A stretch of DNA of 64,000 nucleotides from Rhizaria sp. SCN 62-66 (GCA_001724265.1 MEDY01000081.1:62001-126000), one strand, 5' to 3'. Shown: positions 454 through 53,100, counted from the first letter of the stretch. Translations and numbers: made by a program. Notes: generated by a model not told the origin, from the sequence alone.

Positions 454-486
<33 letters not shown>

Positions 487-2532: not shown

Positions 2533-3358
2533 AAGAATTGGGGCAAGATTACCATTGACATAACACAACACGATAACACAGAACGATAAAGCAAGCGCGG
2601 ACAAAAAGCGTTGCTTTGTTTTTACAACTACGAATGAAAAGATACCTAATAATCTGCGTACTAGTATTCAGGATATTACACTATGATAATGTTTATAACT
2701 ATATATGGCCTCTTCAAAAAGGAGAAATCCAATAAGAAAGTTTAACACTGAGAAAAATACAATCACCAAAATTAATGTTACACTTCAAGCGCGTTTATGT
2801 ACTGATTGTTTTCATGAGTGTGTTGATGCACTAAGGCTGGCTTATGTCTTGTCTGTGAGCCATGCTGGGCTTTTGCTTGCTTGATGGCTGAAACAAGTCC
2901 TTATGATGCTTTTTTTGTTTACTCTAATGAAGTTGAAGGTGGTAATTTGTGTAATTGTCTCAATTGACGCATGCTGTTATTTACAATGATATATGGTAGG
3001 ACATAATAAGATAAGTAAAAATACTTACTCTCTGCTATACAAAAACACTGCATAGTTAGTATACTAGAAAACTGGCGGTGCAGCTCATAAAACTGTTGAG
3101 ATGAAGATGAAAATAACAAAAAACTGCAGATGTTTCAAGCCAACGATACGAGTTTCAGGTGCGGCAGGGGTCGGCTTAAGTCGCAAACTTGTAAGATAGC
3201 CATATGCGTGTACTGATCGTCAAAGCTGCTTATATACATATATAATTTGTCAACATATCTAAAATATATTTTCCGAAAATTAAACGCTCCCATACTTTGG
3301 TTGCATAGTACAAACCGCTTGCGCACCTCGCCTCGTTGGTCGAGTCCTCCACCACACG

Positions 3359-5175: not shown

Positions 5176-5179
5176 GAAG

Positions 5180-8028: not shown

Positions 8029-9767
<1,739 letters not shown>

Positions 9768-10925: not shown

Positions 10926-11430
10926 TTAATTACTCCTCGTGGTGCTCGTCGCAGTGGCCTGGGCCTTGACCGTAGCCTTCGCCTTCGTGTTCCGGCGGCG
11001 GCTATTTGCATTCTTGTTCTTCTTGGTTGCACTCTTGCTTTGGCTTTGACTCTTACTCATACTCTTGCTTTGAGTGGTGGTCGCCGTCTTGGTCGCGGTG
11101 GCCCTAACACCAGCGCCAACGCCAACGACCTGCGCCTCGGCAGCCGCAGCCTCGGCAGCCGCGGCCTCGGCCTCCTCGGCCGCGCGCTTGGCGTCGGCCT
11201 CGGTCTCGTCCTGCGTCGCCGTCCCGGGTTCAAGCGCGCGCGCCCATGCCCGCAGCGCCGCCTCGCTGACGCCGCCGCGCTGCAGCGGGTCCGCGCCCAG
11301 CTGCAGGAACGCCACGCGGGGATCGTCCAGCGCCGCCGACACGGCAGCGGCCGCGGCCGCGGACACGGCGGCCAGCGCGGCGCGGCGCGCCTCGCGGCGC
11401 TGCTGCTGCGTGCGCTGGCGCGGGGTCAGC

Positions 11431-11482
<52 letters not shown>

Positions 11483-20400: not shown

Positions 20401-22566
20401 CGCTTTGCTGTATGTGCTGGAGAGGGCGCGCGGACCCCAGAGCGCAAAGTGCGCCCTGGTCATCGCGGCGAGCTCTGGGGATGGCACCAGCAGCACTGGC
20501 TCGGCCTCGGCCTCAGCCTCCGCGTCTGGGTCAGCCTCTGCGTCATCGCTAGCGTCGACCCCGTCGTTATCGAGATCGGCGCCGCGCGATGCAAGACCTA
20601 AGGGGTTTCCATTCTCGCCCTCATCGTCGTCACCGTCGCCGTCGCCGTCGTCGTCGCCGAAGCCGTCGCCGTCGCTGGTCGCGGCCACTACCGTGGGCTC
20701 GCCCCAGTAGAAGTACACCGCGTCGACGGGCTACCCGCACAGCGCCGCCGCCGACACAGCGCGCCTGGCCGCCGCCACGGCCGCCACGGACCCGGACCCG
20801 GCCCCTGACTCGGACTCGGGGTCAGTGTCGCGATCTCCGTCGCGGTAGTCGAAGCCGTCGTCGTCGTCAAGGCTATCGCCATCGTCGCCGCCAGTGCTGC
20901 TGGCGGCGCGGCGGCCGCTGCGGCTGTGGCCGTCCGTGGTGGCCGTGGCGGCGAGCGCGGCGGCGTGCGCGGCGGCGGGGTCAGCGTCCGGTGCGGCGGC
21001 CGAGGGTGCGCCGTGCAGCGCGGCGCACGCGCGGCACAGCGGCTGCTGCTGCTGCCGCCGCAGGGACGGCAACGCAAACCCAGAGTTGGCGTCGTGGTCG
21101 TTGCTGCGGCCGTAGGTATCGCCGTCCAGGTCGGCGGCAACGGCCTCGAGCAGCGACACCACAAGTGCGGGCGTCGACGACGGCAGCGGCCGGACACCTG
21201 GCACGAGCGCCGTGAAGTAGCCGTACCCCGGGTCGCGGATGGACGCGGCCGCGGCTCCTGCGCCGCCATGGCCGCGGCCGTTGCGGGCGCCGGCGCCGGA
21301 CGCGGGGAGCACAGTCGCGGCCGGCAACTGTGCCTGCGCCTGTGCTTGTTGTGCCGTAATGCTGGCCTGGAGCGGCACAAAGCCCGACGCCTGCGCCTGC
21401 GTCTGTGCCAGTTGTGACACTGAGGCGCCATCACGGCCGCCACCGTAGTCTCCAGCGATGCCGATAGCATGATCGTCATCGTTAGCGCTGTCACGGTCGA
21501 TGCTGCGGCTGCTGCTTGGGCTCACACCCTCGCTGGCATCTGCAGCCGCCGCCGCCTCCGCGTCCGCCGCCGCCGCCTCCGCCGCCGCCGCCGCGGCCCC
21601 CGCGGCGGCCGGGACCGGTGCCAGTGCGGCGGGCCATGGCAGCAGCGTCGCCGCCTCGGCTTCTGTAACGGCGGAGAGCCCCAGCACGGCAAAGAGCGAC
21701 TCGGGCGGCAGCGGGAGCCCGGTGGCGGCGTGCTCCCACAGCGGGGGCGCGTACGACAGCGCGGTCGCCTCGCCGCCGCCGCCGCCGATGCTGCTGTTGC
21801 TGCCACTGCTAGAGCTAGAGCTGGAGCTAGAGCCGGTGACGTCAGCGTCAGAAGCGGAGTCATCCTTGGAGCCTGAACCAGAGCCGGACCCGGCCTCAGA
21901 GGCCGAGTCGTCCTTTCTCTCGCCGCTGCCGCTGCCGCTGCCGCTGCTGCTGCCACCGGGGCTGTCGCCGGTGATTTCGCCGGTGAGTTCGCTGCCGTCG
22001 CCGTCGCCCGCGCCCGGCGTCGAGGGGCTGTAGATCGAGTAGCCGCCGCCGAGCCCGGCCGTGGTGGCGAGGAGCAGCATGGCCGTGACCAGCGCGATGA
22101 CCGCGGCGACGGCCAGCATCACGCGCGGCGCACAGCGGCGGCCGCTGGAGTCGCCGGCGGAGCCCCCACTGGTGGCACCGGTGGCAGCGCTGTAGCTGCC
22201 GTTAATGCTGGCGTAGTCATCATCGACGTCGTCGTCGCTGTCGCCGATGTCCTCGTCGTTGTCGTTGTCATCCGACGCGGTGGCGTCGTTGTCATGGTAA
22301 GTCGGGGCGTCGTCGCTGGGGGCGGTGTACCACTGAGCGCCAATGCCCAGCCGCTGCCACAGCTGCGAGAACCACTGCGCAGGGCCGCCGGAACCAGCAG
22401 CGGATGCCGAGGGGCGCGGACGGCGGCGACGGGGGCGACTGCTGCGCCCGCCGCTGCCGCCGCTGTTGCTGTTAGCAACACTACCGCTGCCGCCGCCGCC
22501 GCCGATGCCGCTCGGGGCTCGGGAGGCGACGACCGGCCGGGATTCCATGTCGCTATCGGCAAGCAT
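10926..22566 (-). CDS. Giant degenerate Stealth-family / GNPTAB-like (GlcNAc-1-phosphotransferase alpha/beta-like) protein, about 3835 codons; exon 22566-16972 (in-frame TAG at 20733-20731) and exon 16838-10926
   Basis: Collinear GNPTAB-like architecture across three ORF-track ORFs: N-terminal TM helix (~22060-22125), CR1-like PVDAVYFYW (20730-20704), CR2-like LAMSLRSL / RVLIVV / WPSVNVNALLAGLPRLP, LNR repeat CAPGCPLAWLGDGVCDLACLGARCGWDLGDC (18604-18696), CR3-like VPSAAAPLVLN...LATRYPAETWAAAAHRLPHARD (~13490-13650), EF-hand-like DDDCDDVIT, CR4-like DDPRVAFLQLGAD...LRAWARALEP (~11225-11330). Intron 16971-16839 GTACGT...CAG, phase 0, restores the frame; stop TAA. Confidence 0.72.
11433..11481. 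repeat. (CTG)n trinucleotide tract encoding poly-Ser in the Stealth-like gene
   Basis: About 16 uninterrupted GCT/CTG units, read as AGC codons on the minus strand. Confidence 0.85.
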
Positions 22567-23262
22567 CGCACGCAAGGCCTCTGGGCGGAGCGGCTAGAAC
22601 GCTGCTAAGTGAGAACGGGGTGAGGGCGGTGCTCGGGGCAGTCGCGTGCGGGGTGTTCTGTTTGACTGTGTTGGAGGCGTGAAAAAGACTTGTAGGGAAG
22701 TGCGAAACCTATGCAACGAAAAATATTATTTGAACATATGAGTTGTTAATTTAGCGTCTATCGGGATTAGATGTCAAAGCTGTAAATGGCGGACGATATA
22801 CAGATTCTGAAATACGCCAACGCGAGATGCCTCCGGATCCGACACCCCAGCCATCCACCACAGCCGTCACCCACGAATGCATATAATGAAGACAAAACAA
22901 TGCATATCTAAAAGTTATCAGTTCTAAGTACGATTTTATTTAGACATGTTGTTAGCTGATTAAAAATACATATTTGGCTGGTGCTTTTATTGATCGAAGC
23001 ATTGTATTGATAGTGTATAACGAGCTTCTCTACTACGCCAAGGTGACGTGTGACTTCCGGTACAGCATAGCAACACGGGTTTGGCGCACTCAATCAACAG
23101 CGCGTATAATGTGGCTACAGCAACAAAGACTATTACAAACAAAATTAAGGATAAACGTATCAAATCATAACATATACAGACAGCAAACATAATGAGACTT
23201 CTCAGCAAGTCCTTGTCGGCACACAGCAGCGCTGCAGCTCATTGCCCCCGTCCCTCGCCGCC

Positions 23263-24267
23263 TTACTTGCCCTTGCCCGCGCCCGCGGCGCCGCGGCCGG
23301 CCCCAACGCCGCCGGCGGTGGCCGCGAAGGGCGAGACGCCCCAGTTAAGCGTGTACGAGTCCGCGAAGAGGGTCACCTCGGAGGACTTGAGGCCGCGGTG
23401 GAAGCCGCCGTCCTCGGGGCGGCGCAGCGCCTCGCTCACGCCGGAGCCCGCGTCGTCGTCGTAGTCGTCGCCGGCGGGACGCTTGGGCGCCACGGGGGGG
23501 AACCAGCCGTACTCCTGAAAGAAGCAGATTGAGCAAAGTTAGAACAACAACATGGGATATAACGTGGTATAGATGAGATTATAATGTGAAACGTGATTAA
23601 CCATTGACAGAATTGTTCAATCAATTTAACAGTATGATATACCCGCAAGATATGTTACAAAGTGTGAGATATCTAGTTCAAAGCTGTAACTCTTCAGTGC
23701 AGAGCGCACAACACATACCTGGTTGGAGGAGGCCGGGAAGGGGTGGCGCGCCTGGGGCGGCAGCAGCGAGCGGTGCATCGTGCTGAACAGCTCCTCGCGC
23801 AACGCCGCAACGGTCGCCGAGTCCAGGCGCCCGCTCTTGCCACCGGTCCGGCCCATATTGCTCCCGTTGCCGCGGCCAGTGCTGCTCATCGTGCTGTTGT
23901 TGCCGCCGTTGCGCGCAGTGGCGTCGAGGCCCGCCGCGGCGAGGGTCGCGGATCGGCCCTGGCCAGACTGCGTAAAGCTCGCGTTGGCGCTGCCGTTGCT
24001 GTTGCCGCTGCCGTTCACGCAGGCGGAGGAGGACGAGGCGGTCGCGATCGCGGCAGGGCGCGGGCAGCGCGACTCGAAGGAAACGGCGGTGGGCTTCTCG
24101 GGAAGCATCACCAGTGTGCGTGGGTTCGGCGCGTACGCGTGCTTGGGGAAGTTTTCGTACTGACGCGCCTCTTTTTCAACGCGCTCGCGCCAGATAGAAA
24201 GCTTGGCGACCTCGTCCGTGCGCTGCGCGCCTGTCGCAGAGGCTGAGGTGTGCGACTTGGAAAACAT
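23263..24267 (-). CDS. FAM183/CFAP144-like cilia- and flagella-associated protein; exons 24267-23719 and 23514-23263
   Basis: IWRERVEKE...LPEKP N-terminus; PQARHPFPASSNQ|EYGWF formed across intron 23718-23515 (GTATGT...CAG, phase 0); C-terminal SSEVTLFADSYTLNWGVSPF; stop TAA. Confidence 0.75.
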
Positions 24268-24727
24268 CGCCCTGGGGGAGTCAATAGCATTATTTAACGG
24301 ACGTGTAAGTTAGTGAGTGGATATAAAAGTTGACGTTTTATACTACCATCGCGCGGCATTTGACCCTGACGGAGTTACACATCTCTTGAGAGTGGTTACT
24401 AAAACGTAAGTTTCGCCTGTTTCTGTGTCGCTCGCTCGACCGCGCTCTGACCACAAATATTGTTGCGGTACTTATCAATCGTTTATTCCATCAATGAGTC
24501 GACCTAAAGTGCCACCATCTTGCTGCCGCATTTACGCGTTGCTTTTACTTAATAATCCATTTTTACACTTACAAAACACTGCATTTATCGCCCCTGTGCG
24601 CTTCATATCTTTTCGACCCTAGCAGCCCAGGCCTTCTTCCCCATCAACCAGATCTCTACGCCCATAACCACCATCCCCGCGTGTCCGTCCTCGCGCCGTT
24701 TCACTCGCGCGTTGTCAATCTGCTTAA

Positions 24728-26671
24728 ATGTACTCCTCCTTTGCTGCCGAGGCTTCCAGGGGTCCTGCCCACTCTCGTCCGACTCCTCTTGCGAGCGCCG
24801 CCGACGACCTCGCCCGTGTTGCCGCGGGCCGCAGCGCCGGCCTGCGCTCCTCTCTGCCGATCTCCAACGCTGTCATGTCGGTGGGTGACGCGAGCGACGA
24901 CGAGCTGTTTGCATGCAACGAGGCTGATGTTGCGGCACTCCGCAAGGCCAAACCTTGGGCTAACAAGTACGTCCGTAAAATCCTCTCTCGTATGTACATG
25001 CCATCAAATGCGCTTTATGTTGACTTAATGAAACTATCACGTGTAAATATTAATGATCACGGGTGCATCTTGTATTATTTTATCGGTATGCGACGCATTA
25101 CTCTTTCGGTCACAAATATACATGCGTGTATCCCTTCTGTATCTCACATCATCTCTTCTTTCGACTCGCCTGCATTGCACCGCTCAGCCCGTACTTCTTC
25201 CACTCGTGCTCCGTGTCCGCGCTGGCGGCCATGAAGATGCTGCGCCACACCATCACGGGCCTTGTGCCCGTCCCCAACGCGAACATCAACGCCAGCGCTG
25301 ACAACAGCACGGGCAGCACTGGTACCTCCGACGCTGCGCCCTCCGCGGACTCCGCTTCCGGCCCCACGGGCCCCGTCGAGGTGATGGGGCTGCTGTTGGG
25401 CTTCCCCCGCGCCGACGGCACGGTTGTGGTGACCGACGCCTTCCCTTTGCCCGTGCGCGGCATTGAGTACCGCGTTGAGGCCGCAGAGCAGGTACGGCGA
25501 CAGCTCCAATCATTGCTTTTACGCGAGATCTATTCGGACGTGGTTGAGATGTGTGAACTTTGTTGTGGTTAATGTCAGTTCATATGCGTTTAACTTGTCT
25601 TTTTCCGTGAAACTTTTTACATCTAAGTGATATATCCTCTCAAAACACGCTTCACTCCATTCCCTCTCTTTGCTCCACCTCGCATCGCAGGCCCTGGCGA
25701 TCGCCACGAAGCTGCAGGACTCCGTCGAGGCACGCCGCGTGGAGCGCTTTGTGGGCTGGTATCACTCGCACCCGTTCCCGCTGGCGCCATACTCGCACTG
25801 CCACCTGTCTGCGACGGATGTGTCGACGCAGGCCAACTGGCAGCTCATGGCGCCCGCGTGGACGGCTATTGTGGTCGACCCGCAGCGCGCGCTTGCGACG
25901 GCCTCGCTCGAGCTCGCCGCCTTCCGCACGCTGCCGGCGACCTTCGCGCCTGACGCGGACCGCGCGCCCGATGGCGCGCTCATCGAGGACAAGCGCGCGC
26001 ACACGCGCCGCTGGGGGCTCTCGGCCGGCCGCTACTACTGCCTGCCAGTCAACTTCTTCGCGTCCTCGCTTGGCGCGCGCGCGCTGGGAGAACTCTCGCG
26101 CTCCTCACTCTGGGCGCAGGCGCTCCAGCAGCAACAGCAGCAGCAGCAGGCGCAGGCGCAGGTGATGCAGCAGTTCGCGGCGTCCTCAGCCCCTGCCACG
26201 GCTGCGCGCGCGGCCGCCGCCGTGGCCGAGGCGGCGGCGCGCGCGGCGGCCGCCGGCGACGCGGCGGATGCGGCCGTCGCGGCGGTGGGCGAGGCCGAGC
26301 ACAAGTTCATGACCAAGAGGAGCATTGACGGCGCTTATGATGAGGGCTACAATATCGGCGGCGGCGGCGGTGGTGCTGCTGCGGCTGTCAACAACCTCGC
26401 CGACCGTTCGCGCCAGCTGAGCGTCAAGCACGCCGCCGCTGCGGCAAGCGCGGCGACGGCGGCGGAGCGCGCCCGCGACGTCTCGGTTGCGGCGGGCGCC
26501 GCTGCGGGGACGGCGTGCTGTGACGCCGCAGCCTCGCTCATGCGGCTCGTCGCTCTCACGGTCACGCGCGGGCAGCGCGAAGACGACGACGGCGGCTGCC
26601 ACGGCCACGGCAGCGGCGCCTGCGCTGGGGTGGCCAGTGGCGCCAGCGCGATGCAAGACAATTTTGATTGA
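24728..26671 (+). CDS. CSN5: COP9 signalosome subunit 5-like MPN+/JAMM metalloprotease; exons 24728-24966, 25188-25491, 25691-26671
   Basis: Spliced KPWANNPYFFHSCSVSALAAMKMLRH, EVMGLLLG, DAFPLPVRGIEYRVEA, JAMM motif VGWYHSHP...LSATDVSTQ, AIVVDP, WGLSAGRYYCLPVNFFASSL. Introns 24967-25187 (GTACGT...CAG) and 25492-25690 (GTACGG...CAG); stop TGA. Confidence 0.88.
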
Positions 26672-27339
26672 AAGAGTGGCTTGTGAATTGAGAACCTGAT
26701 GCTTTCCGTAGGGGAGCTTCAATGTCAACGATGATGGCCTGAGGTCCGAGAGTTGTCATGCTTCCAATACATCAATACAAAGACTTTTACCCAAATAACA
26801 ATGTGTATCGTGGTGTCGATATAGTATGTTTGCATTCCTGTTGAGTGATATTATCCTCGAAGTCGTCGTCGCTGTCGCTACAGCTGCTACTAAACCCGTT
26901 GCAGCGGCGCAGCGGGAGCTCCTCCATCACAACGGTGTGGAAGTGCAAGATGGCATCGTAAATCTCGCACCACTTCTCGTCGGTGGCCTCCGCGTTGACC
27001 TTGTCGGTCAGATAGACAATCGCCCGCGCCAGCTCCGGCGAGTCCAGGAGCGAGCGGCGACGAGGGCCAACCGCGGAGGATGCAGAGACCCCCCACCCCC
27101 CCCTAAAAAAATCATGTCGCGGTAACAGTAACGTTACTATTAAGGTACGTAAGCAAACATCAAAGATAATGAAAAGAATTATATGTATCAAAGAGCTTTA
27201 AATTAACGCGCATCAAGCAAAAAAAATCATTAAACATTGATAATCACCATACAGGTGTTCCATGAAAGTCTCTTCGTAGTGTTACGCGCAGCACAGACTG
27301 CGAGCTTACAAATTTTCATCGACTTTCCTAACTGGAGGT

Positions 27340-30300
27340 TTACAACATCAGGAAGTCCGCCTTCTTGTCCGGTACGGAATAAACATAGACATACCGTGGC
27401 GCATTGCTGCCCGTCGCCCTGCATGCATCCGTCACGAGCTCCATCAGCGCAATCGCCTTGATCCTGGAGCTCTTGCTGGGGAAGTGCAGCTCCGACAGCC
27501 GCTGGTCTGCAGTCTGCCTGCCCGCAGGCAGCGCGGCGCGCGCCATGACCCGACGCAGAATGCCGAACTCAAGCTCGATCGCGTACAGCAAGTACGACGA
27601 GGGCGCCAGCGGGCCGAGCAGCGGCCGGAGCACGCGGATCACTTCGTGCTCGATGTTGGTCTTCTTGAACGACGAGAGCGAGTTGGCGGGGTCGATCATG
27701 GTCACGACCATCATGTTCGCGTTGCTGCCACCGCTGTCCTTGCCGCCAGCACCGGATCCAGAGGCTCCCGCACCGCCGGAGCCCTTGCCGTCACCGCCGG
27801 TACCGTCTGCAGCCGCGGCAGCCGCAGCGGCAGCGGCAGCGGCAGCCGCCGCAGCTGCAGCCGCACGCTTGGTCATCCGCGCCGGCGGCCCCGCAGCCGC
27901 AGCCGCGCCCGCTGCGCCAGTCGTTGCGTCGCCGCCAGCGCCAGCGGCGCCAGAGTCCCCGGCGCCCGCCGAGGCTGCTGTGGGGGCGCCCGTGGTCGGG
28001 ATGCGGCGGCCCGTGACGTGGCCGACGGCCTCGATGACCGCGGCGGCGTGTTTGTCCTCAACCCAGCCGATGAACTCCTTGGTGGAGATGAGCAGCGTGG
28101 CGACCATGCCGCCGGGCGCGAGGTCGTACACCTCGACCACGTCGCGCTGCTTCAGCAGGTGCGGCTTGAGCAGCACGAGCCAGCGCAACCCGAGCTGCTT
28201 GCAGTACTCCCGCGCCTGCTCGCTGCCCATGACGCTCTCGCGACTCATCTCGGCCCGCATGCCCGCGCGCCACATTTGCGACAGCCACCCGCCCGCGGTC
28301 GCCGTCGCCACGCCCGTCGCTAGCCACAACAGCACGCCCGTACGCGGCTCGCGCTTGGCGAGCGCCTTGAGCCGCTTCTGCAGCAGCTGCGCGTCGTGCG
28401 AGTCGCGCGCCTGGGGCTCCATTGCGAACGCCACGATGCGGTCGAGCGCGAAACACGCGCTGGCGCCTCGGAGCGAAGCGGCCGTCGTCGAGGTCGTCGT
28501 AGACAGCGTGAACGAGGCGAGGGTAGAGTCGAAGCGACCGCCGGAGCACCAAATAGTGCGTTGCTCGACAGAGACAATCGCGGCAGCCGTGGCAGCAGCA
28601 GCGGCAGCAGCAGTGGTTGTCATCGCACTGTTGCCCGCGCCACCAGCGCTGTTCGCATAGGTTGAGAGCGAAGACGAAGAAGCCGAGGACGTGAGGTTCG
28701 AGGGCGTCGTGAAGAGCGCAGCAAGGTTGTTCATCGACGCGGACGTCGTGAACGACTCGCTCGACAGCAGGCCGCCCGTCGCGCCGGTCACAGAGCCGCG
28801 GGACTTGACGATCTTGTCCACCGACGTGTGCAGCTGGTAGATGATGCCGGACGAAAACACGCTCTCGTGCGGCGGCTGCAGAATGAGACCCAGGTCCAGC
28901 GTCGCCGTGATGCCGAGAGACGCCGTGGCTTCAAAGAAACGGCGCAGCTCGGCGAACGTGTCACTCATCATGTGCTGCCAGCGGTGCGCGTTGTCGTCAT
29001 CGCCCAGCGCAAGCGGCACAAAGGGCAGTCCGTGCCCGCCCTGTCCAGGGGCAGCGGTTGTTCCGGTGGCCACAGTGGTCGAGGATGCCATCGCTGCGAG
29101 CACGCGCGTCCGCGGCGGCGTGAGCACGAGCAGCGCGTCGTTGACGCGCAAGAACGCGTTCTCAACGTGTTCGCGCGACGGGTTAGGAAGCAGCGTCGAC
29201 GCGACCATGAAGAGCGACTCGAGCACGAGCGTCGGCACCATGTGCGAGCGCAGCTTGGGCGCGAACTTGCTCATCGCGCGGTCAGAGATCGCTTCGAGCC
29301 GCTTCGCGATCTCCACGAGAGCCTGCGCGGGCGACAGCGGGAACGGGGCCGCGTGCGCGCTGTTGAGGCGAGATGACCGGACACCAGTGCTACTGCCGGG
29401 GGCAGAGCCGGGCGGGACCGCAGCGGTGTTCGCGGCGGTCGTAGCGGCGAGCGCGAGCGTGCTCAGAGCACGCACGTGCGGCATCAGCAAAGTCACGAAC
29501 TCCTTAAAAAACGCCAAGAACGCATTGTACACCTCGGCTGGAGTGTATGTGGGCGCGGCACGCTCGTTGCTGTTGGCAGTAGCCGCAGCGGCGGTCTTGC
29601 CGTCCTTGGCAAGGTGCTCAGTGAGATCAAGCGTCGAGTGAGACAAGTCGTTGCCACCGCGACCAAAACTGCTGCCGAAGCCTGCACTGTTGCTGTTATC
29701 ACCCTTGCTGTGGTTGCTCTTGCGTTGCAGCCCGTTGGTGCCGACGGTGTTGATCGTCGGCGGCGGCAGCTGGTGGTGCGAGGGCGAGGCCAGGTCCAGA
29801 CTCAACGGAGCCAGCACCGTCGCCGGCGACAATGCGGCCGAGAAGTACGGCGACTTGGACGCCAGCGACGGCGCGCGGGCTTGCGGCTGCTGCAGCGTCG
29901 CGGCGACGGGGTGCTCGAAGAAGCAGTGCTGCGCTGCCAGCGCGAGGACGATCTGCATCACAGTCGCGTGCGAGACGTGGGCCGCGAAGCTGGGGATGCA
30001 GCAGTGCGTCAGCGCCTCAGTCGCAGTGTACAACACTTCAGCTGTGAGGATCGAGGACCGCATGTGGGAGGTGTCTTTGTCGACGGTCCATGCAATGTCG
30101 AAACCCGCCTCGAGCGAAGAGCGGAACGGGGGACCCGTGGACGCGGTCTGGTCCGAACGCGTCTTGTACACGCTGTCGAAGTCGTAGCGCCGCAGCTCGA
30201 CGGGGATCGACTGCGGACCCCGCGTCGCCGCGCTGCCTGTGGCCGTGTCCGCAGTGGGGATGGAAAAGAGCCTGTCGCTTTCGTAGTTGTGCGCCACAAA

Positions 30301-40281: not shown

Positions 40282-41185
40282 ACAGTGAAGAAAAAAACCT
40301 GTTGTTTGTTAAATCAGCCGCGGAACGCAACTGGGAGAGAAGAAAAGTCGCTAGTGCAGGTCTGAGATTGTTGATGACAGTGCGGTGGTGAACTGAGCTG
40401 AGTCTGGGGGGCGAGACATCAAGCGCACATAGAGGAAAGCATAAGAGGTGTGAGGAGAAATGCGCAATAGATGGTGTTAAATACAGCAAAAACAATGTCT
40501 GAGCGTCTGCATATGCGTCGAGATAGTTGTTGATGCAGCTGCCAAAGAGAAATTGAAGGAGAGCAGCTAAACGGTCAGCAGTCACTGCAATGGTAGGGTC
40601 AAAGACCCCATTGAACTGTCACAATGCCTGAAGGATGTGAGACCACAATTTAAAACAGATATATTTCATGGCTGGAGCAGTTCACACATAGGCTTTTATA
40701 TTATACTGGCGATTGTGTATCTAGATATCTTTGTGCAAAGATGCATGATTGGTGACTTTTTTCGGAACAGGCCCCGAATCGGCTGATAGTGGTTCGCAAC
40801 CTTCCAGCGCGCCAAACTCGTTCCTTTTCCTGTGGCGGCAGCCTCTCCGTCAGTTAGCATTTGGCGCGTATTCCGTAAAACTACATTATCTTTTGTAAAC
40901 AAGCGTTCAATTGTAAACCCATAGTAGCACGATAAATCTTCGAAATCACTCCGCTGAAACGCGTCCGCGAACCATGTCGCTTCCCTACTGCTCGCCTCTA
41001 TTCTACACGCTCGTATGGCCTATAACATCTCACAATACGCTATATTATCTTTTTTTCCTGCGCAGCATTTGCTTTGGCTTTGCTTTGCGCTTAGTATACC
41101 CTTAAGCACTTGCATAGCCCTCCTGTGCAGCGCCCCTCCCTCCTGCCCCCCCAGTTCGCGCCGCGGGCCCGCCGCCCCGTCCCCG

Positions 41186-44100
41186 ATGCCCGCGCCCCCC
41201 GCCCTGCCAGCGGTCCTCCCGCCCGCGGCCGCGCCCCCAGCGGAGCCGGCGGACCCTTCTGACGACTCTGCGGTGGCGTGCGACGTGTGCGGCATCGGCG
41301 CCTTCGATGACGACAACCTGATCGTCATCTGCAGCCTCTGCGACGTGGCCGTGCACCAGGGCTGCTACTCCGTGCATGACGTCCCCGCGGGCAACTGGTA
41401 CTGCAAGGCGTGCACCTGCCTTATCAACGACGCCGCCGCGGCTGCCGACGCGTCCCCGTACGTGCGTCTGCCGTGCTGCCTCGTGTGCCAGCCAGAGTCG
41501 CGCCTCGTATTCGCTCACGACGATCTGCTGGCCACCACGGCCGCCGCGGCGGGCGCGCGCACCAGCCAGGCCGTGCGCGCCGCCGTCAGCGCCGGCGAGG
41601 GCTACTGCTACGCTCCGCGCGCGCCCACGGCCGCGCTGCCCATCCCCGTCGCGCCCGCGCGCCCGGACCTCCCCGCCAGCTACTATGACAAAGTCTCCGG
41701 CTCCTGGTCCGCGCCGTCGGCCAACGCCAACGCCGCCGCCAGTAGCGCCGCCGATGCCGGTGGCAGCAGCGGCCGCAAGCCATCTTCGCGGCGGAGTAAG
41801 CCCGACAGCTCGTGCGCCGCCGCAGCGGCCGGGGATGCACTGCACCCGCTGCCCGCCCCATCGCCGACTTACGTGTACCCGACGCGGCCATCGCCCTTCG
41901 CGCCAGTGCCGTGTCTGCCGCAACTTTACAGCTGCTTTCCTGCGCCCGCGCCTGCAGACGCCGCCGCGGCCGCCGCGCTTGCCGCCGCTATGACCGGCCC
42001 CACCAGCTCCAGCTCGAGCTCGAGCGCGAGTGCAAGTGCTGGGGAGGGCTCGATCCGTGTCAAGCTCGAGAAGCCCTCTGCCGCCGCGGCTGCGAGCAAC
42101 AACAACGACGACGACAATGACGACAACGGCGATGATGAAGCGAACTCGCACGAGAGCGAGAGCCTGCTGCTGCGGCCGCCGCCGCGGTGGGGGCAGGTGG
42201 TCGGCGCGCTCACCACGGTTGACCCCGCCGACCTCGCCGCGCTCGCCGTCGCCGCCAAGGTCCGCGCGCGCCCGCGGCCGCCCGGTGCGGGTGAGGCGCC
42301 AGCCGTGACGCTGCTCAAGGCCGCCACTGGCGAGGTCCTGGCCAAAGCGGCCGACGCGGCTGCCCGGCCGGCGGGCAAGTTGGGGCCGGACGCGGAGTGG
42401 CGCCTCGTGCCCGCGCCGCCGCGGCCGCCGTCACTTTACTGCGTCGCTGCGGCCACGGGCGCCGCGGCCATCGTCGGCCCCGCAGCGGCCGCCACAGGAG
42501 TGGAAGTGAGCCCAGGGCCGAGGTTCTACTGTCACGTGTCGTGCGCAGACTGGTTGCCCAACTTATCCTTCGCTGACGACGACGCCGATGTCGGCGTGCG
42601 CGGGCTTGGTGCGAGCGAGACGGGGCGTTACAACCTCGTGTGCACCGTGTGCAAGCAGAAGGGCATGTGTCTGCAGTGCTCGCTGGGCAGCTGCAAGGTC
42701 GCCTTCCACGCGCACTGCGCTGTCAAGGGCGGGCTGGAACTCTCATTTAAGCAAGTCCAGCCGCACGGCGCTAAGCTCAACGGCAGCGGTGATTATGTCG
42801 TTGAAAAGCGGATCATCAGGTGCGCGGCGCACAGGGACGACAAAGTTGACTACTTTGTGACACCGCGGCATCGGGAATTTTGGAAGAATATCGCCAATGC
42901 CCCTGCATTGCATCAACCGCCCATGGTTGCTGACGATGCATCTGCAGTTTATCACAACAACAATACCAATCAAAAGAACAGCAATATCAAAACTGACAAG
43001 GACAATCACGGTAACAGCAAGAACTCAAGCTCAAAGAAGCTCGACTCGAAGCCTAGTGCTGCTGCGACAGCGGCTGGTCTCGGCCCGAGTCCTGCTTTGA
43101 TGGGCACTGTGGGGAATGCCACCATCAGCCCCTCTGACGCCAGCGCCTTCCCTGCCAGTGCCCCCGCTGCGAGCGCCCCCGCGCAGTCTGCTGCGAGCGC
43201 CAGCGCCAGCGCCAGCAGCGACGCCGACGCCTCCGCCCCCGTGCGCCGTGTCACGCGGTTCACGCCGCCGCAGTCGCCATCGCTTACCGCCCCGCGCACA
43301 GCGCCGCGCACTGTGCCGCGCACTGTCGCGCCCAGTCCGCCGCGTGAATCTGCGTCTGTGGCCGCCAGGATGAAAGACTCCGACGACGACGATAACGATG
43401 ATGACGACGACGGCGAAGACAAGGCTGTCAAGACTGAAAACGCATCGACGGCCAACGTAACCGCTGACGGCGACGGTGCCATCCCCGGTAACGCCGAGAG
43501 CGAGGGCGAGGTTTGGAGCGAGATCAGCGACAACTACGACGACTACGACGACGACCTGTACTGTTTTCCGCCGATTTGCGACAACTACACGTCGCGGAAG
43601 CTCACCTTCGCGCCCGTCCTTACCAACAACAGCAGCAGCAGCAGCGGCGGCGGCGGCGGTGCCAATGCGCGCGCGCGTGGCATGAGCCAGAAGCTGCGCA
43701 TCCGCCTGACGCCGGGGCTACGTTTTTCCTCCCCGTTCGCGTACGGGCTGGTGGACCGGCCCGAGGAGCAGCTGCCCACGCTCGAGCTCGACTCCGCCCT
43801 CGCCCTCGTCAGTGCAGGCAGCGCGGCGCCGGTCAAGAAGAAGGGCGCGGCGTCTGGCGCGGCCAAGGGTGCGCAGGGCAAGGCGGGCGCCGGCCTGCGC
43901 GGCGCGGCCAAGAGCGACAGCGACGACGACGCAAGCGACGGCGGCGCGGCCGAGGACGGCGGCCGGCGCAAGCGAGTGATCAAGTCCAAGTACGGCGGTG
44001 TGGCGGGCTCTTTCGGCGGCTTCGACGACGATGAAGAGTGGGAAAAGATCATGGCCCACGGCTCCAACATCTACGACGACGGGCTCAGCGACGATGCGGA

Positions 44101-47100
44101 GGAAGAGGATGGCTGGGGTGGCAGCGGCAGCAAGGGCAAGGGGAAAAAAGGCAGCAGCAAGAAGGCCAGTGGCAACGCCAGTGGCAAGAACAAGACGTTT
44201 TTCGGTGTCAATGCAACCGCAGGCAAGAGTGGGGGCAACAGCATCTCTGACCTCTACGCCTCCGTCTCGTCGCTGCCCTCTGGCGGGCGTGGCGGCAGCA
44301 GCAGCCTGAGCGCGCTCGCCGCCGTCAGCGACGACAACGTCAGCGTCGCGCAGTCGCTACGCGCGCTCGCCTCCTTCCTCCCGGTCCCGGGCACTGCCGC
44401 TGCCGCTTCCGCCGGCGCTGGCGCTGCTGCGGCGGCGGAGACTGCGGCGGCCGCGAGCGCCGGCTGTGGCAAACTCATCGACCTTCTCAACGCCACCGCG
44501 GACGCCGCCGCGACGGACGCGCTGAACGCGGCCATCTGCGTCGACGTCAACAACGCCGCGGCCGCCGAGCTCGCTCTGTCTCACATCAACAGCAACGGCC
44601 ACGGCCCGTCCGGCTCGCCCACCGCGTCGCTGCACCTTAACCCGGCTGCGCTGAGCCTCGCCTCCTCGGCGGCGCACCCGCTGTCCCCACTGGCCTTCTC
44701 GCCCACGCCGTCGCTCTCGCTGGCCGCGCTCGCGAGCGGCGGCGCGGGCAGCGGGCCCGGCGGCGAGGTGACTGCCGACGACGCCGCCGCGCTGGGCGTC
44801 GAGTTGGCCGACTGGGCGCTCCAGGCGCCCGCGCTGCGCCGCGTCTTCGTCAAGGAGGTCCTCGCGGCGGCCAGGAACAGGTCCAAGTACCTGCCGGGGT
44901 TCGCGCACCTGCGTCAGGATGACAAGGCGAGCACTATGAGCCTGGATAACGCGGAGAACGCTGGAACTAGTAAGAGCGCGGCTAGCAATAGCAAAAACGC
45001 TGCTTCCGCCGCCAGTCAGCAGATCAACGGCAACAAGAGCGACGCCGCGTCTGCGTTCGAATGGTACGGCAGCGACGTCAAGTCTGCTGGCGAGTTCATT
45101 GCGCGTGTCAACACCGAGTACTTTGCGGACAACATCGCGCTTAACATCAGTGATAAGACAGTCACGGTGACTCCGGTCGAGCTCCTGCAGTGCATCGCTC
45201 GCGACGGCGGCTTAACTGCATCTTTCACCTGCGACGAGCAACCTTTGAACGAGGAGTCTTTGCTTTCTGTTAACTCTAACTCCAAGAGCAAGACTGTCTC
45301 TGCGACCATGACTGTCGAGCTGGTGACTAAGTCTGACAGCAAAATGACGCAGAAGAACAAGAAGGGCGCCGAGACTGAAGAGAAACATGCGACCGTGAGC
45401 GCGAACGAGTGGCCGCTGGAAACAACGTTGCTTCCTCTCACCACGGCCACTGCTGCGAAAAGCAACGGCAACGAAGTCACTGCGGGTGACAACAAGAACA
45501 CTGCGCCGGCTCTCCTCCTGACTCGCATTGCTCCATCGATGTCTGACGATGCATCTGCTCAGACTGCTGCTGACGGCAAGGCCCGCGCTCTCTTCGCGCT
45601 GCGGCTGCAGCCCGCCACGGTCTCCGCTCTCGCCGCTGACGCCGCCACGAGCACTGATGCCGCGAGCGCGAGCGTGCATGCGAGCAGCATGCGCCACGCA
45701 GGTGTTGCGATGAGCGATAATGCCGATGACACCGACATTAGCAACCGTACCAGCGACAGCAGCGTCATCTCGCGCCTTCGTGGTGAAACTGCATTTGTCA
45801 CTGCCGGCGGTGCTAGTGCCTTTGAGATCCCCCTTAGCTCTGCGCACGCAGCCTCAATGGCGGCTGCGCTCGCACTCGAGTCTGACACGCTCCAGCAGCC
45901 CCCCGCGCCGTTCAGCTACACGCGCGTCTCAGTCATGCCCGACGGCGCGGCCGTGCCTGAGATCTACAGCAAGCACTACAACAACTGCGACAACAGCAAT
46001 AGCTCCAGTTTGAATGCGAACTCCTCTGTCAACCACACTGGGGCTGTGGTGGACTCTGCAGCGGTTGCGTTTGGACAAGTCAACTTCCCTCCCGTTCAAG
46101 CCGTCTCAGATGTCAGCACCCTGATCCCCCGTGCATCCCCTTGTGAAGAGAAATCGCCCAGCGCGACCCCCTTGCTCACGGTCACCCTCGGTCATGTCGA
46201 CGCCAAAGCCGCCGCCGCTGCCACCGCAGCGGCAGCGGCGGCGGCTGCAGCGGCTGCGAGCGCTTCAAAGAAGGGTGGTATCTGTAACCAGAATAAGGCA
46301 TCAAGCGGCCGTTTTTCGCGCGCCCCCAATACGCACACAGCGCCAGTCGTCCCGGAAGTTGATGACAACAGCGGCGACAGCAAGCGGCTGGAGTATCAAC
46401 AGCGGATGAGCTCGCTCTACTCCCAAACAGCCGGTTTCTACAGTCCACTTGGCGCGGACAACGGGCCCAACGTCGTTGTGGCTGACACAAGTCTTCTGCT
46501 CCTCAACAAGCAGCAGCAACAAGAGCAACAGAAGCAATGCGAAGCTCCTGTTGGCGCTGGTCTCAACAGCGCTCTGACTCTGCACTTGCAGACCGCGTCA
46601 GTTGCCCAGTTGCCCTCTGGCGACTCGGCTCCGAGCGCCGTCAAGCAGGTTGCGGTGACTGTGACCGCGGGCGACTGGTGCTTGCGCGCAGTCCATTTGC
46701 TCAAGAAGCCCCCCACCATGTTCCCCGGGTCTGACGCCGCGGGGGACGCCGCCGAGGCAGGCGCCCCCGGCACGCCGTCGCAGCGGAGCAAGTCGCGGCA
46801 AAGCGGCAGGACGGCCGCCAAGTTGGGTGCGAGCGACGACTCGGCGGCGCCGGTCGGCGCGGCGCACGTGTTGACCGAGCTTCACACTGCGTATGCACTG
46901 CTGCGCGCTGTTCAGGTGGAGAACGCACGTCTCGCGAGCATCGCGCTCGCAAACGCCAACGCCGCACCTGCGAAAGATGTTGTGAAGGTGGAACACGTCG
47001 CGCCAGTGCCGCAGCAGAAGCAAAGTCCGCAACAGCGCAGCGACGCTCTGATTGCTCTGCTCGCGCGCTACCGTGCCTGGCGCCAGCGCGTGTCCGTGGC

Positions 47101-50100
47101 GCTGCTTCGCATCGAGCGCCTCGAGGCGCGCGCGCGGCGCAGGGACAGGGCCGTGGCCAAGGCCGGCGCTGTGGCTTGGCAAGCGTTCGTGCCGACGCCT
47201 TCAAGCAACGTCATCAGCAAGGATAGCGCGACTGCAGATGACGCCGAGAGCAAGCATGAAGAGTCTGCTCCCATTAGTGTGGTTGCGAAGGATGTCATTG
47301 CTATGGCAGACGAGACTAAGGATGCTTCTCTCAGCTCTAACAAGGCTGCTGGGGACGGTGATGTGATTGCCATCGACACGACTACTGCCACAACAAGTAC
47401 GCTTAACGCTACCGCGGAGTCAGCGTTTTCGTACGACGTCGGCAACGACTCTTCGCTGCTGCAGTGGCTGCCCCCGCTGAAGTCTGTCAAGTGCGACGCC
47501 AACGCGCTGTGCTCGGTCTGCGGTCTGCTCGACGACGATGATGACGACGACGAGGATGAGGCTGGTGAGAATCAGAGCGACGCCTCTGACACGGACGCCG
47601 ACTCAATCGCCGACCCTAACACGGCTGACTCTCAGCACGACAGTGACAACGGCGACTCGAGTGTTGTCAATCGTGGCAAAAGCGCATCGTTGCCAACGAT
47701 GGTTCAATGCATGGGCTGCCTCGTAACTGTCCACCCGCGTTGCTACGGAGATAATCTCAATTTGTTCTCTCCTCTCCAGCAAATTCTCGCTCGCCAGCAG
47801 CAGCAGGAGCAAAACACCAGCTTCCCGTGGCTTTGTGCGCGCTGTGTGATGAGCTCTCTCGAACTTCACAAGGCCTGCGTCGTGTGCGGCTTGACTTCCG
47901 GCGCGATGCGTCCCATCGAGCTTACGCGTGAGCCGTGCTCCTCCGCTGCCGCCAAGCCTGTACTGACGGCGGCAGCAGCGTGGGTAGTCAGGTATCACAG
48001 CACACTGCAAGACGTGCTGAAGCAAGCTGTCGACAAGATCAAGGAAAAACGCCAACAGCAGTACAAGGCAGCTGTTCGCGCCGCCAAGACCGCAGCTCCT
48101 ACGGCGGAGACTGAGGCCAAGCAGCCTGTGGCTATGACCGACAATGACGAAAACATCATTGGCAACACTGATTCGTCAGCGGCTGACAGTACTAGCGTCG
48201 ACACTGCGGCACTCAACGAGATCCTCACTGCGCCGCCGACTGCTGCTGAGTCCGCGTCTATCGAGGCCGCAGTGCGCGTTGCTGCCGCCGAGTTCAGGCC
48301 GTCCCCGATTCAGTGGGCGCACCTCTCGTGCTCGCTCTGGGTGCCGGAAATGTACTTCCGCGCTGCGGATTTCTGCGAACCGGTCGCCAGCGACGCCGTG
48401 TCCTCACTGCCCGCGAAGCGCCGCGCGCTCCCGTGCTACATCTGCAACGACCGCGAGCGCGGCGGCGCCGCCGTGCAGTGCATGGAGAAGAAGTGTTTCG
48501 CGTCGTTCCACGTCCACTGCGCGCGCACGCGCGGCCAGGCCGAACTCTGCCTGCACACGGACCAGCACACTGGCGACTCGGCGTACGTCTCCTACTGCCG
48601 CAAGCACCGCAACGACCTCGTGGCCCCGAACGCGCTCTCGCCCGCGGGTGTGGCCAACCGCGGCCCCGGGCCCGCCGAGCCCTTCACTCTGGAGGACCGT
48701 GCGGCGTCGCACGGGCTGCCGACGACGTCCCCCACGCTCGCGCTGCGGTTGCCCACCGCGGTCATCCGCGGGCACTACACCGGGCACATGGGCGACGAGA
48801 ATGTGCGCACGAGACTCGCGCCGTCGATGGCCGAGGCCGCAGCTGCCGCCGCCAAGCAGCGCCTGCTCGAGGTCCACCAAGAGAACGTGCTGCTCGAGTG
48901 GCAGCAGCAGCAGCAGGGCGGCATTTCCGGTCCAGCTGGCGGCAAAAACACTGGCAAGCAACCGCTCGGCGCCGCCGCTGCTGCTGCTGCTGCCGTGGTG
49001 GCCGGCGGGGCGCGTGCCGAGGTGCCTCTGTGGAGGCTGCTCGGCCTCAGCTCCCCCATGGACAACGCGAACGCTTCCGCCGCGCACCCTGTGGCCGCGC
49101 AACATCCGTGGGCGTGCTTTGTGCGCACCACGCTCTCCGGCCTTGCGGTGGGGATCGCGCGGCCCTTCTTGCGCCTGCAACAGCAGCAGAGCGGCTCACC
49201 GACGCTGCCGCAGTTCGCGCTGCCGTTCCTGCTCTCGCTGCCGACGCACGTGCGCTGGCTGCTGCTGCCGCCGGCGCTGCGCGCCTCGATGCGCCGCCTG
49301 CGCTCCGCCGCGGTCTGGGCTCGCGGTGCCACCGTGCTGGGGCAGGACGTGTGGCCGCAGCTTCAGTGGGCCCGCTCCGCGCTCCAACAGCAGCAGCGTA
49401 ACAAGACCGATGGTGGCCGTCAGAAGCCTGTCGTGCTGCGTCTGCCCTTTACGCCGTGCCACGCCGCCGCTGTCTCGGGTGTTGCCGTCGACAGTCTGAG
49501 TGGCGATGGCGGCGAGACCGTTGTCTGTCGCGACGGCCGCTGCAATGGCAGTTGCATTCAAAGCCCCGAAGCTGTTGCCGCCGGCGCCGCGACTGTGGCA
49601 GAGGTGCTGCGGTGCTCCTGCTGCTGGGGCGGTGGTGTGACCGTGGGCACTCTTTTCTCGACGCTGCTCGGTCTTAACACGCCTTTTGTTCCAACTTACA
49701 CAGAGACTACCCTGACTGACACAACGAACTCGACTGATGCCGTTTCGAAGCCTGATGCTCCGACGGCGGACCCATCGTTTTCAGGAGCTACCGCGAGCAA
49801 CAGTCCCTTTGTCATCGCAGCGCTGCCCAGCCAGACAGAGTCTCCGTGGTGGCTTCGCTTCTTTGCCGAGCTTGTCCGCGGCTCGATCCCGCTCGAGCGC
49901 GAGACGTACTGGCTCAACGGACTCGACGCGGCCGCCAAGGCTGCGTCGAGCAAGCCTGCGAGCGCACGTGACCCGCAGGGAGGCTCCGCTGCCGCTGCTG
50001 TGGCCGTCTTAGCGCACCGCATCCCGGTTCCGGATCTGCTGTTAGAGCCCGCGTCCGGCCCCGTGACCGCGAGCGGGGCCACCCTGCACATGCCGCGGCT

Positions 50101-53100
50101 CACGCGGCTAGCGCTGAGCAACGAGTTTGACGCCGTCTGCAGCGCGTGGAAGAGGCTGCCCGTGCTCCCGAGCTTCAACCCCACCGTGGCGGGCAGTGAA
50201 GCCTACGGCACGGGCATCGGCGGCTGGATGGGAAGCAGCACCATCGGTCTCGGGGTCGTCCCCAGTCCTGGCGCTGCTTCTCCGAGTGCGATGAGTGATG
50301 CTGTGGGTGAGAATGAAAAGGTGATGGTGTTCTCTGCTAGCGCCAGCTCCAGCGCGAGTCGCATTGTTGATGCCGACGCCACTGTCTCTGCTGTAGGTTC
50401 CACGAACAGTACGAACCCCGCTAGTTCTCTTGCAATGGGTAGCTGCAGTGGCCCAGTCAGTACGCAGAGTTTGCGTCAACAGCTGCTGTCTCTCATCGCA
50501 GCGGACTTTGCGTTCACTCATCCGTAGCTCGTGGCGACTCCTGACCACTCGCAGGCATTGGATGCCTTGGCTGCAGCGACTACCGACTCCCTCTGCTACT
50601 CCCTTGCAACTTCAGTCACTTTCATGAACACAGAGGCCGGTGGTAACACGAGTGGGAGCAGTGCGCTTCCGCCTTTGATCTCACTCTTCACTGCTCCTAC
50701 CTCAGCACTCGCGCTTTCGTGCTTCGCACTACCTGCTTCTCTTGTCCTTCCCAGTGGAAACTCCCCCACAAGCGCGGCGAACACGTTGCACCCGTCGTCT
50801 CAGTCTGGAGGTGTCTCCGCAGCCGCGTCTCTGTCCCTCGCCGGCCCCAGCAACTCCACCTATATCGCCTCTCTGCCCGACGCGGCGGAGGTCGAGGCTG
50901 AGCTCGACTTTGCCGCCTCGCAGCAGTGCGAAGACATCGAGGAAGCGTACACGAGCGGCGATACACACGGCGAGGCGCACGCTGAAGAGTGGGCGAGCAT
51001 GGGACACTGGCTGCGCCACTTTGCCTCTGCTACCACGGCGACGGACTCGGCTTCGAGCGCGAGTGTGCGTGCGATTCAGAGCGCAGCGTTCTTGCCGCTG
51101 CCGTCGCACCCCGTCCCCCTGACTCCGTTCGCATTCATCCCCGTCGACCCCGTCCTGTCGTGCTGGAACTGCGAGAAGTTAGGCCGCACAACTGCGGCGC
51201 ACGCCGAGTGCCTTGGCATGCCTCCCGCGACGTGGGTCCCCTCGGTCGCGCGGTTCCTGCGCGCGGTGGTGTTCCTGTACAAGCAGGCGCTGAAGCACAC
51301 GAACCCCGAGCTCAACGACACGACGATGAACAACGTTGGCCTCCGCGACCTCAATAGTGATCTTGCCACTGAGCTCACTGCTGCTGCTGCAGTATCGACA
51401 GCGCCCGCGGTGACTGCCCCGACCGGCGTCCCCGCGCTGGACCCCCACTGCATCGAGCACGCCGCCATCCCGCTCGTCATTCCCACCGAGGCGCTCGCGG
51501 CCCCGACGCTCGCTCTGTGCCCGCTCGCGCTGCGCCGCGCGCTCACGCAGGCTAGCGCGCTTTTCTGGGGACCGGACGCATTCGCCGCCGCGGTCGCGCT
51601 CACGACGCCCTGCTCCCAGACCGCCCAGCCGCTCGGCAACGCCAACGACAGGCTCGCCGCCAACCGGCTCGATGTCGCGTACGCTCGGCTGCAGCGCGCG
51701 GTGGGCGCCGTCGTGCCCTACTATACGTGCCCGACGTGCGACGCCGCGCCGCTGCCCATGGCCGCCACGGCCGCCGCCGCCGCGGGTGCGACGGGCACGG
51801 CCGCGGGCAATGGCAGCGCGCGCAGCGGGCGCGGGCGTGGGCGCGGCGGCGCTCGCGGGCAGATCAGCTCCACGGGTGCGCGCCTCGCGTCCACGGCCGC
51901 GGCAGCGACGGTTAACGTCGACGACGCGGACGACGACGACGAGGAAGACGAGGACGAGGCCGTGCGCGTGCGTGCGCGCGCGGCGGGCGTGGGCCACGGC
52001 CGCGGCAAGTCTGCGCGCGACCGGCGCGCTGACAACCAGCGCATCGGGATGTCCGCGCTGGGTGCTGACAGCAACAGCAACAAAGCCAACGGCAGTCAGA
52101 ACAAGGACAGCGGCGCCCGGAGCACCACCAGCGGCGCGCGCAGCAACGGCAGCAGGGGCGGTCGTGGCGGCAGCAACGCCGCAGGCAATAGAGGCCGCGG
52201 CCGTCATGCCAGCGCGGGCTGTGAGTCCGACAGCTCAGACAGCGACGCTGGCCCCGGCTCAGCCGAGCCCGCCTCTGCCGCGCTGCCGCCGTCCCCGCTG
52301 CCGGCGGGCGCGCGCTGGCCCGGCTGCGTGCTGCTGGCACCGAGCGACCGCAGTCTGTACCGCAACCCGTACTGGCCGCTCGAGGCCGAGTCCGCCGCCG
52401 CCTTCAACAGCGCGTGCTCGGTCACGGTCCGCACACGCATTGCGTCTATCTCGCTCGCGCGCACGGTCGCCGCAGGCGCCGTCGCGCTGCTGTCGGGCGC
52501 CGCGGCCCCTGCGCCCGGCGCGGTGGGGTTGAGCGACGCCAACGAGTCGGTGTCGCACGCGCGCGCGGCCTGGACCGCTGTGCAGACGCGGCTCGACAAG
52601 CACCGCGCATTGGCGCAGCACGCGGCGGCGCTCGACCACGCGCTCGCGCTGTCGCCGCCGCAGTTCCTGCCCCCGCGGTGCGCGGCGTGTCTGTCGCGCG
52701 GTGGCATCATGCGGCCCACGGCCGACGGCTCGGGCCTCTGGGTGCACCCCATCTGCGTCGTCTACACGCCCGAGCTTTTCTATCGCGGCCAGGCCCCCGA
52801 CGACGAAGTGCGCGGCCTCAGCGCGGCGCTGCTCGCGCGGCGATCGCTGCAGTGCGGCGTGTGTCGCATCAAGGGCGGCGCCTGCGTGCAGTGCGACGCG
52901 CGGCACTGCTACACCGCGCTGCACGTCACGTGCGGTCTGCGCGCCGGACTGTTGCTGCGCGACGCGCGCGTGCGGCGCTCCTACCAGGCCGACCCGCTGG
53001 ACCCGTACTCGGGCATGTACAGCGCGTTCGACGGCACGCTCGTCGGCCGCGTCGACGGCGAGGCCAACGATGAGGAAACCATCACCGGCGGCGCCGACGA

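Follow-up and report, generated by a model that had tools for sequence, protein, structure and literature searches.

Nuclear genetic codes in which the meaning of UAG is split from that of UAA are known from just a few lineages, and in the cases set out by the two reports drawn on here the reassigned codon is common in all of them (PMC5304391, PMC11687900). For the rhizarian exLh, which reads UAG as leucine, 384 UAG codons are given for 71 genes, with 56 UAA and 15 UGA ends; for Iotanema spirale, which reads UAG as glutamine, the figures are 204 UAG codons in 126 genes, with 104 UAA and 15 UGA ends (PMC5304391). Three further UAG-only events, to leucine or glutamine, are described in phyllopharyngean ciliates, where 92.6-96% of aligned C-termini end in UAA (McGowan et al. 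2024, PMC11687900). Here we analyse a 64-kb stretch of DNA (MEDY01000081.1, 62001-126000; hereafter the window, in which all positions are counted) that carries two in-frame TAG codons in two unrelated giant genes: TAG1 in a gene with an LNR domain and TAG2 in a PHD-finger gene. Both are genuine codons inside continuous coding sequence, more firmly so for TAG1. A previous reading of the window from its letters (the sequence-only reading) had proposed that UAG is translated as an amino acid here, and had called the uncoupling of UAG from UAA very rare, a description that the ciliate events oblige us to update.

Each TAG was found where the sequence-only reading had placed it. TAG1 (20731..20733, minus strand, read at 20733-20731; context gcgggTAGcccgtc) occupies codon 621 in the first exon of the LNR-domain gene, and its stop-to-stop frame holds 620 codons upstream (20731..22593) and 1261 downstream (16945..20730). 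TAG2 (50525..50527, plus strand; context atccgTAGctcgtg) is codon 3190 of the PHD-finger gene (40958-55405, plus strand; 4815 codons stop to stop including TAG2, ending in TAA followed by A), with 3189 codons upstream (40958..50527) and 1625 downstream (50528..55405). The claim that more than 600 open codons lie on both sides of each site was thereby borne out. Across the six large frames of the window, 16,273 codons in all, these two TAGs are the only in-frame stops (no TAA, no TGA), and the shifted frames over the same DNA hold 234 (frame +1) and 496 (frame +2) stops, 730 in total. Antisense frames of up to 755 codons are also open by chance in such GC-rich DNA, for example 400..2667 on the minus strand, so openness alone is poor evidence of coding and it is the codon-usage signal that counts.

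The ends of the genes differ from the two internal codons. Using our own gene models we reproduced the earlier tally of nine ends: seven are TAA (2530-2532, 9765-9767, 10926-10928, 23263-23265, 26787-26789, 27340-27342 and 55403-55405), two are TGA (4689-4691 and 26669-26671) and none is TAG, despite a GC content at third codon positions (GC3) near 0.8. One of the TAA ends, at 26787-26789, closes a small frame that is unverified. The base that follows the stop is A or G at all nine ends, and C at both internal TAGs.

Composition provides a second line of evidence. Exons of 65-77% GC alternate across the window with spacers of 36-44% GC, and the sharp contrast between these exons and the AT-rich or pyrimidine-rich introns makes introns and spacers visible from composition alone. 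Six introns were found, all inside AT-rich islands and ~127-230 nt long by reading. They lie in a two-exon gene (3789-3915, GTATGT...gtcag), in the S-adenosylhomocysteine (SAH) hydrolase gene (8524-8675, plus strand, 152 nt, GTACGC...aacag; our reference for local intron features), in the LNR-domain gene (16839..16971, minus strand, 133 nt, gtacgt...gcag, phase 0, GC 0.32), at ~23717 to 23515 (minus strand, GTATGT...ttcag) and twice in the JAMM gene (starting at 24967 with GTACGT and at 25492 with GTACGG). Their 5' sites thus read GTACG in four cases and GTATGT in two, the base before the GT is G in five of the six, and the two introns that were measured have a GC of 0.32 and 0.38 and a G content of 0.11-0.13. 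No 60-nt window below 45% GC was found near either TAG, which upholds the claim that neither site has an AT-rich spacer. The window's spacers and introns appear as AT-rich islands whereas the surroundings of the TAGs do not, and this favours reading both codons as sense.

TAG1 is the stronger of the two sites. The minus-strand frames 16945..22593 and 10926..16892 are predicted to form a single gene of 3844 codons (22593-10926), joined in phase 0 across the intron at 16839..16971. Exon 1 (16972..22593) comprises 1874 codons including TAG1 and ends in ...AGAATG before gtacgt, its first ATG lying at 22566-22564 (counted by hand from the translation); exon 2 (10926..16838) adds 1970 codons, up to a TAA with G as the next base. 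Since it falls within the intron, the TGA at 16945-16947 is no gene end. Around TAG1, frame 0 comes out ahead by codon-usage log-likelihood in each 40-codon window between -300 and +280 codons, with a GC3 of 0.75-0.95 between -100 and +20 codons. Within 400 codons on either side, frames 0, 1 and 2 contain 1, 8 and 28 stops, respectively. The DNA has a GC of 0.71-0.75, with a minimum of 0.58 within 600 nt, and none of the 73 in-phase GT..AG intron candidates that would remove TAG1 has the local GTAYG 5' site.

The architecture of the LNR protein also bears on TAG1. A Kyte-Doolittle scan (19-residue window, threshold 2.2) of the 3844 residues picked out just one strong hydrophobic segment, a likely signal anchor at residues 158-176 (22066..22122, minus strand), which is encoded in exon 1 upstream of TAG1; exon 2 encodes none. 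A cysteine-rich LNR (Notch) module (Pfam PF00066 at 26.3 bits, cut-off 21.2; 18604..18696, minus strand) lies ~680 residues past TAG1, which is residue 621. LNR modules are extracellular or luminal. The segment past TAG1 would therefore need an anchor ahead of TAG1, and this dependence argues that ribosomes read through the codon. The nearest methionine downstream of TAG1 is 90 codons on.

Two resemblances at this gene were considered and set aside. The peptide PVDAVYFYW directly after TAG1 recalls the Stealth CR1 region, a likeness that was dropped for want of Pfam support: a Pfam scan of 551 residues around TAG1, with E-values up to 10, matched no family. Identification of the product as a GlcNAc-1-phosphotransferase-like Stealth protein is likewise unsupported, as only CR3 of the regions CR1 to CR4 matches, weakly and in exon 2, at 19.2 bits and below the cut-off of 24.2 bits.

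Comparison with other assemblies and reads covered positions 10001-30000 of the window, which include TAG1 and not TAG2, 29.8 kb away. Separately assembled contigs from runs X2 and X3 span 19875-21533 (1659 nt) with no differences. Deposited under different study names and labels, the two runs agree over the compared stretch in every contig piece listed, in piece length and in depth; they are probably a single data set that was deposited twice, and we count them as one. Run X2 and the probable source run belong to one study. The identity at TAG1 makes an assembly slip peculiar to the contig of the window unlikely and leaves room for a variant fixed in the population. At the 90% likeness used, many bacterial contigs adhered to the GC-rich repeats and made the depth bins unusable. 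One X4 contig departs from the window at seven bases in the 49 nt of 14957-15005, in a repetitive, alanine-rich part of the LNR-domain gene; the differences probably stem from a different copy of the repeat, or a different organism, and not from variation between strains. In the RNA run X5, pieces at 20039-20539 and 21961-22476 flank TAG1.

At TAG2 the picture is more mixed, and this is the weaker site. Upstream of the codon Pfam identifies a PHD finger and two PHD-like zinc modules, and downstream one further PHD-like module (residues 717-814 of the downstream part). Frames 0, 1 and 2 hold 1, 18 and 23 stops within 400 codons on either side. TAG2 stands in a compositional dip with a GC of 0.57, a GC3 of 0.50-0.62 and flat GC1/2/3 values (0.42-0.72), and the minimum GC within 600 nt is 0.50; a GC content this low is found in ~5-7% of ordinary coding windows of 246 nt, which are open all the same. 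The motif GTACG, of which the 48,819 nt of coding sense strand contain 30 copies, is present twice upstream of TAG2, at distances of 116 and 65 nt. The second of the earlier claims on gene structure, that no consensus intron covers either TAG, holds at TAG1 and is less secure at TAG2, where an in-phase GTACG...CAG candidate can be drawn from the nearer of these motifs (50460..50705, plus strand, 246 nt, GTACGC...cctacctcag). This unproven candidate has a GC of 0.57 and a G content of 0.24, unlike the measured introns; its GT is preceded by A and its AG followed by C, positions at which G prevails in the known introns.

Relatives of the TAG2 region were sought by word-index searches among proteins of 2648-8427 and of 30-2647 residues, and by HMMER with 1200 residues around TAG2 against 1.84 billion representatives; both returned only the frames of the window itself (P0001 and P0002). 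A metagenome scan with 1000 residues of the region gave 593 pattern matches and no relative. The database entries matched in these searches are the halves of a split product, of 3113 and 1593 residues; under standard gene calling each of the two giant genes is cut in two at its TAG.

We consider it possible, though short of probable, that UAG is read as sense in this organism. If so, ribosomes would have to pass both TAGs to make the full-length proteins and UAG would not be an effective terminator; a tRNA whose gene lies outside the window would decode it as an amino acid, and genes would end in UAA, mainly, and in UGA. The change would be young, or the decoding inefficient, given a TAG usage of 2 in 16,273 codons. 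We infer the translation of both TAGs, and the validity of such a code across the genome, from these patterns. The structural premises of the sequence-only reading accordingly hold, while the decoding step it proposed is unproven, with only two sites and a low TAG frequency behind it.

Several results weigh against this reading, and the first of them is frequency. Two TAGs in two unrelated genes of one 64-kb window fall short of what a sense codon would show: in the six frames the rarest sense codons are ATA (7), CGA (17), AGA (19) and TTA (19), so that TAG is 3.5 to 9.5 times rarer than these four. A TAG that was a free synonym of CAG (362), TTG (107) or TAC (162) would be expected many more times, so any reassignment would be young or inefficient. 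The stop pattern appears to fit published UAG-only codes and the TAG frequency does not. The absence of TAG from the nine ends, which the sequence-only reading had proposed to count and which does come out as none of nine, is a weak hint in favour of the sense reading, with a chance of ~0.13 if TAG closed 20% of genes. Nor does the fact that both internal stops are TAG discriminate between explanations: because G-ending codons dominate, 67% of random single-base nonsense changes here would yield TAG (~0.45 for both). The proposed check for a tRNA with a CUA anticodon, run on the window, came back negative, as both tRNA genes in it are tRNA-Leu(AAG). Neither TAG lies within a Pfam domain, and hence no amino acid can be assigned.

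Other points on the same side concern the individual sites. Near TAG2, between -60 and +60 codons, the coding score barely differs from zero (-1.5 to +6.9), and the in-phase candidate at 50460-50705 both spans TAG2 and overlaps this weakly coding stretch. No relative aligns at TAG2, the homologue searches having been aimed at that site and none made around TAG1. The confirmation from a second data set covers TAG1 and not TAG2, and for TAG1 it comes from no independent population. Among the pieces listed for X4 and X5, none spans TAG1 or the intron at 16839-16971, which is uninformative either way.

A more specific form of the proposal, which we regard as doubtful, places this uncultured GC-rich eukaryote at the very beginning of UAG reassignment, with TAG nearly gone from its genes and the few that remain read as an amino acid. 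If true, it would offer an extant case of the "codon capture" stage, which is predicted by theory and has hardly been observed in nuclear genomes. A lineage in which TAG is near-absent both as stop and as sense would show an early step of code change, and would allow two models to be tested against each other, one in which the codon disappears first and one in which ambiguous decoding comes first. Should the TAGs prove to be nonsense alleles or part of an intron, the finding would be an ordinary one.

Under the standard code, one or both TAGs could be recent nonsense alleles, either heterozygous or strain-specific losses of function or marks of very young pseudogenes. We think this unlikely, and it is nevertheless the alternative that survives best. 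The bias of random stop-creating substitutions towards TAG suits it, and at the ~5-7x contig depth of X2 and X3 allele fractions are invisible and contigs drop minor variants. Giant low-complexity proteins may tolerate truncation, and with many windows screened rare events get picked up. However, two such alleles in six genes would be a high rate, and no TAA, TGA or frameshift is present elsewhere in the 3844 and 4815 codons concerned. A nonsense allele at TAG1 would cost the protein its LNR module and everything beyond residue 621; TAG1 is identical in a sample filed one year after the likely source run. The strain represented in X4 and X5 has 22 listed differences in 20 kb and none of them is at TAG1, although cover at that position is not shown.

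Programmed or leaky readthrough under the standard code would yield mostly a 620-residue anchor protein and a 3189-residue PHD protein, with a fraction of long product; we judge this improbable. The C that follows both TAGs, where all nine true stops are followed by A or G, is what such an explanation would lead one to expect, C at +4 being the leakiest stop context in eukaryotes, and the coding signal does resume or continue beyond both codons. The same C is, however, expected from composition (36% C), and the codons downstream (CCC GUC and CUC GUG) contain no motif of the CAR-YYA type. The 120 nt downstream fold no better than their shuffles (z of +1.29 and +0.08), two cases among about ten genes would be far above known rates, and the downstream domains look integral to their proteins and not like optional extensions.

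Comparably improbable, in our judgement, is that the TAG is removed or changed in the RNA, either by splicing of an in-phase intron, which is plausible at TAG2 (50460-50705), or by A-to-I editing of UAG to UGG. For splicing at TAG2, the GTACG upstream matches the 5' site of four of the six known introns, and the candidate has a run of pyrimidines followed by CAG at its 3' end and coincides with the flat GC1/2/3 and the near-zero coding score. Against it stand the GC and G values and the atypical flanking exon bases given above, and at TAG1 both the lack of any GTAYG candidate and the GC of 0.71-0.75. For editing, the preference of fungal editing for UAG is in its favour, as far as the source describes it (PMC11156358). 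The U at -1 of the candidate edited A is inherent in UAG. Predicted folds show the UAG paired at TAG2 and, at TAG1, within an internal rather than a hairpin loop (z of +0.73 and -1.69), both folds being unremarkable. An ascomycete source is also unlikely, since the SAH hydrolase of the window is of the long type, nearest to PDB 3ond, and not of the short type, which is the opisthokont one.

A base-call or assembly error at one or both sites is very improbable: depth is low (~5-7x) and TAG2 is known from one data set, but TAG1 was reproduced without a difference over 1659 nt in the separate assembly of another run, and two stop-creating errors in 48.8 kb of intact frames would be most unexpected in a short-read consensus. 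It is just as hard to credit that the TAGs are ordinary gene ends with new genes beginning by chance just downstream in the same frame, for although a separate PHD-like module is present beyond TAG2, and an ATG follows that codon at a distance of 31 codons, the other intergenic gaps are AT-rich islands of a few hundred bases to ~1.2 kb where here the GC minimum is 0.50-0.58, the nearest ATG past TAG1 is 90 codons on and beyond sequence that still scores as coding, and no hydrophobic leader belongs to the LNR part downstream.

The window carries genes of eukaryotic kind, and low-complexity expansion is common to all the large ones. From its start the window holds the end of a HECT ubiquitin ligase gene (1-2532, plus strand), a two-exon gene (3284-4691), two tRNA-Leu(AAG) genes (5179-5260 and 6665-6746, minus strand) and the SAH hydrolase gene (~8100-9767, plus strand, ending in TAA at 9765..9767). 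Beyond the LNR-domain gene follow a two-exon gene that ends at 23263, a JAMM/MPN gene (~24729-26671), an RWD-plus-kinase gene of the GCN2 type (40308-27340, minus strand, 4322 codons) and, after the PHD-finger gene, an open frame of 2449 codons that runs to the end of the window. The GCN2-like kinase owes its 4322 codons to long alanine, serine, glycine and aspartate runs. The two tRNA-Leu(AAG) copies are separated by ~1.5 kb, in an AT-rich stretch, and the frames that overlie them give near-identical translations, which suggests a tandem duplication of the tRNA gene together with its flank.

The source is a microbial eukaryote with a long-form, plant/SAR-type SAH hydrolase. Its DNA is present in runs labelled as bioreactor, wastewater and activated-sludge metagenomes. 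Exon 2 of the hydrolase gene has relatives at 88, 88, 85, 82 and 82% identity, the closest of them on environmental contigs, and one at 79%, which is a dinoflagellate transcriptome entry whose sequence is also found on metagenome contigs; identity to bacterial genomes is at most 66%. One of these relatives, locus L001, is a lone SAH hydrolase gene on a transcript-sized piece of 1909 nt (88% identity, GC3 0.89, TAA stop), and the high GC3 and TAA stop in common indicate, from the sequences compared, that a related organism is present in another collection. The best solved structure is PDB 3ond, which we take to be a plant enzyme, followed by 1v8b, 6uk3 and 5v96. The Atlas listing in the taxon search contained bacterial-labelled clusters only. 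In a literature search, judged on titles and the openings of abstracts, none of the papers listed deals with this organism or with a wastewater eukaryote that has a variant code.

Set beside the described systems, the window comes closest in its stop pattern to exLh and Iotanema, in which, in the data presented by Panek et al. (2017), UAG alone occurs in frame and genes end mostly in UAA, less often in UGA and never in UAG. Many of the UAGs reported there occupy conserved leucine or glutamine columns and were confirmed in RNA reads (PMC5304391). Here, by contrast, there are 2 in 16,273 codons, neither lies in a Pfam-matched domain, and among the RNA pieces listed none reaches either of them. 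The phyllopharyngean ciliates, as described, share UAG as sense and UAA as the preferred stop, and those cases too came from metagenome-assembled genomes (PMC11687900). Unlike them, nothing marks the window as ciliate, its exons being 65-77% GC and its introns 127-230 nt long.

Functional stop-codon readthrough occurs in animals and viruses, and the single in-frame stop followed by C, with the coding signal continuing downstream, resembles it. In contrast to those cases, neither TAG is accompanied by a known stimulatory motif or structure, and the downstream parts are thousands of codons long with core domains. In filamentous ascomycetes, A-to-I editing converts premature UAG to UGG, and genes seemingly broken by one in-frame TAG are reported to encode full-length proteins there, as may be so here (PMC11156358, PMC5496914). 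The hairpin-loop context of that editing is absent from the predicted folds at both sites, however, and the organism is unlikely to be an ascomycete. Amoebophrya sp. ex Karlodinium veneficum is said to carry in-frame stops at low frequency, and thus to use its reassigned stops very rarely, as would be the case here; all three stops are reportedly involved there, whereas the window has only TAG. The pattern seen here, with UAG internal, most genes ending in UAA and a minority in UGA, appears to match the published UAG-only codes, and if UAG is indeed read as sense in this organism, its code would join them, with a special value in its very low use of the codon.

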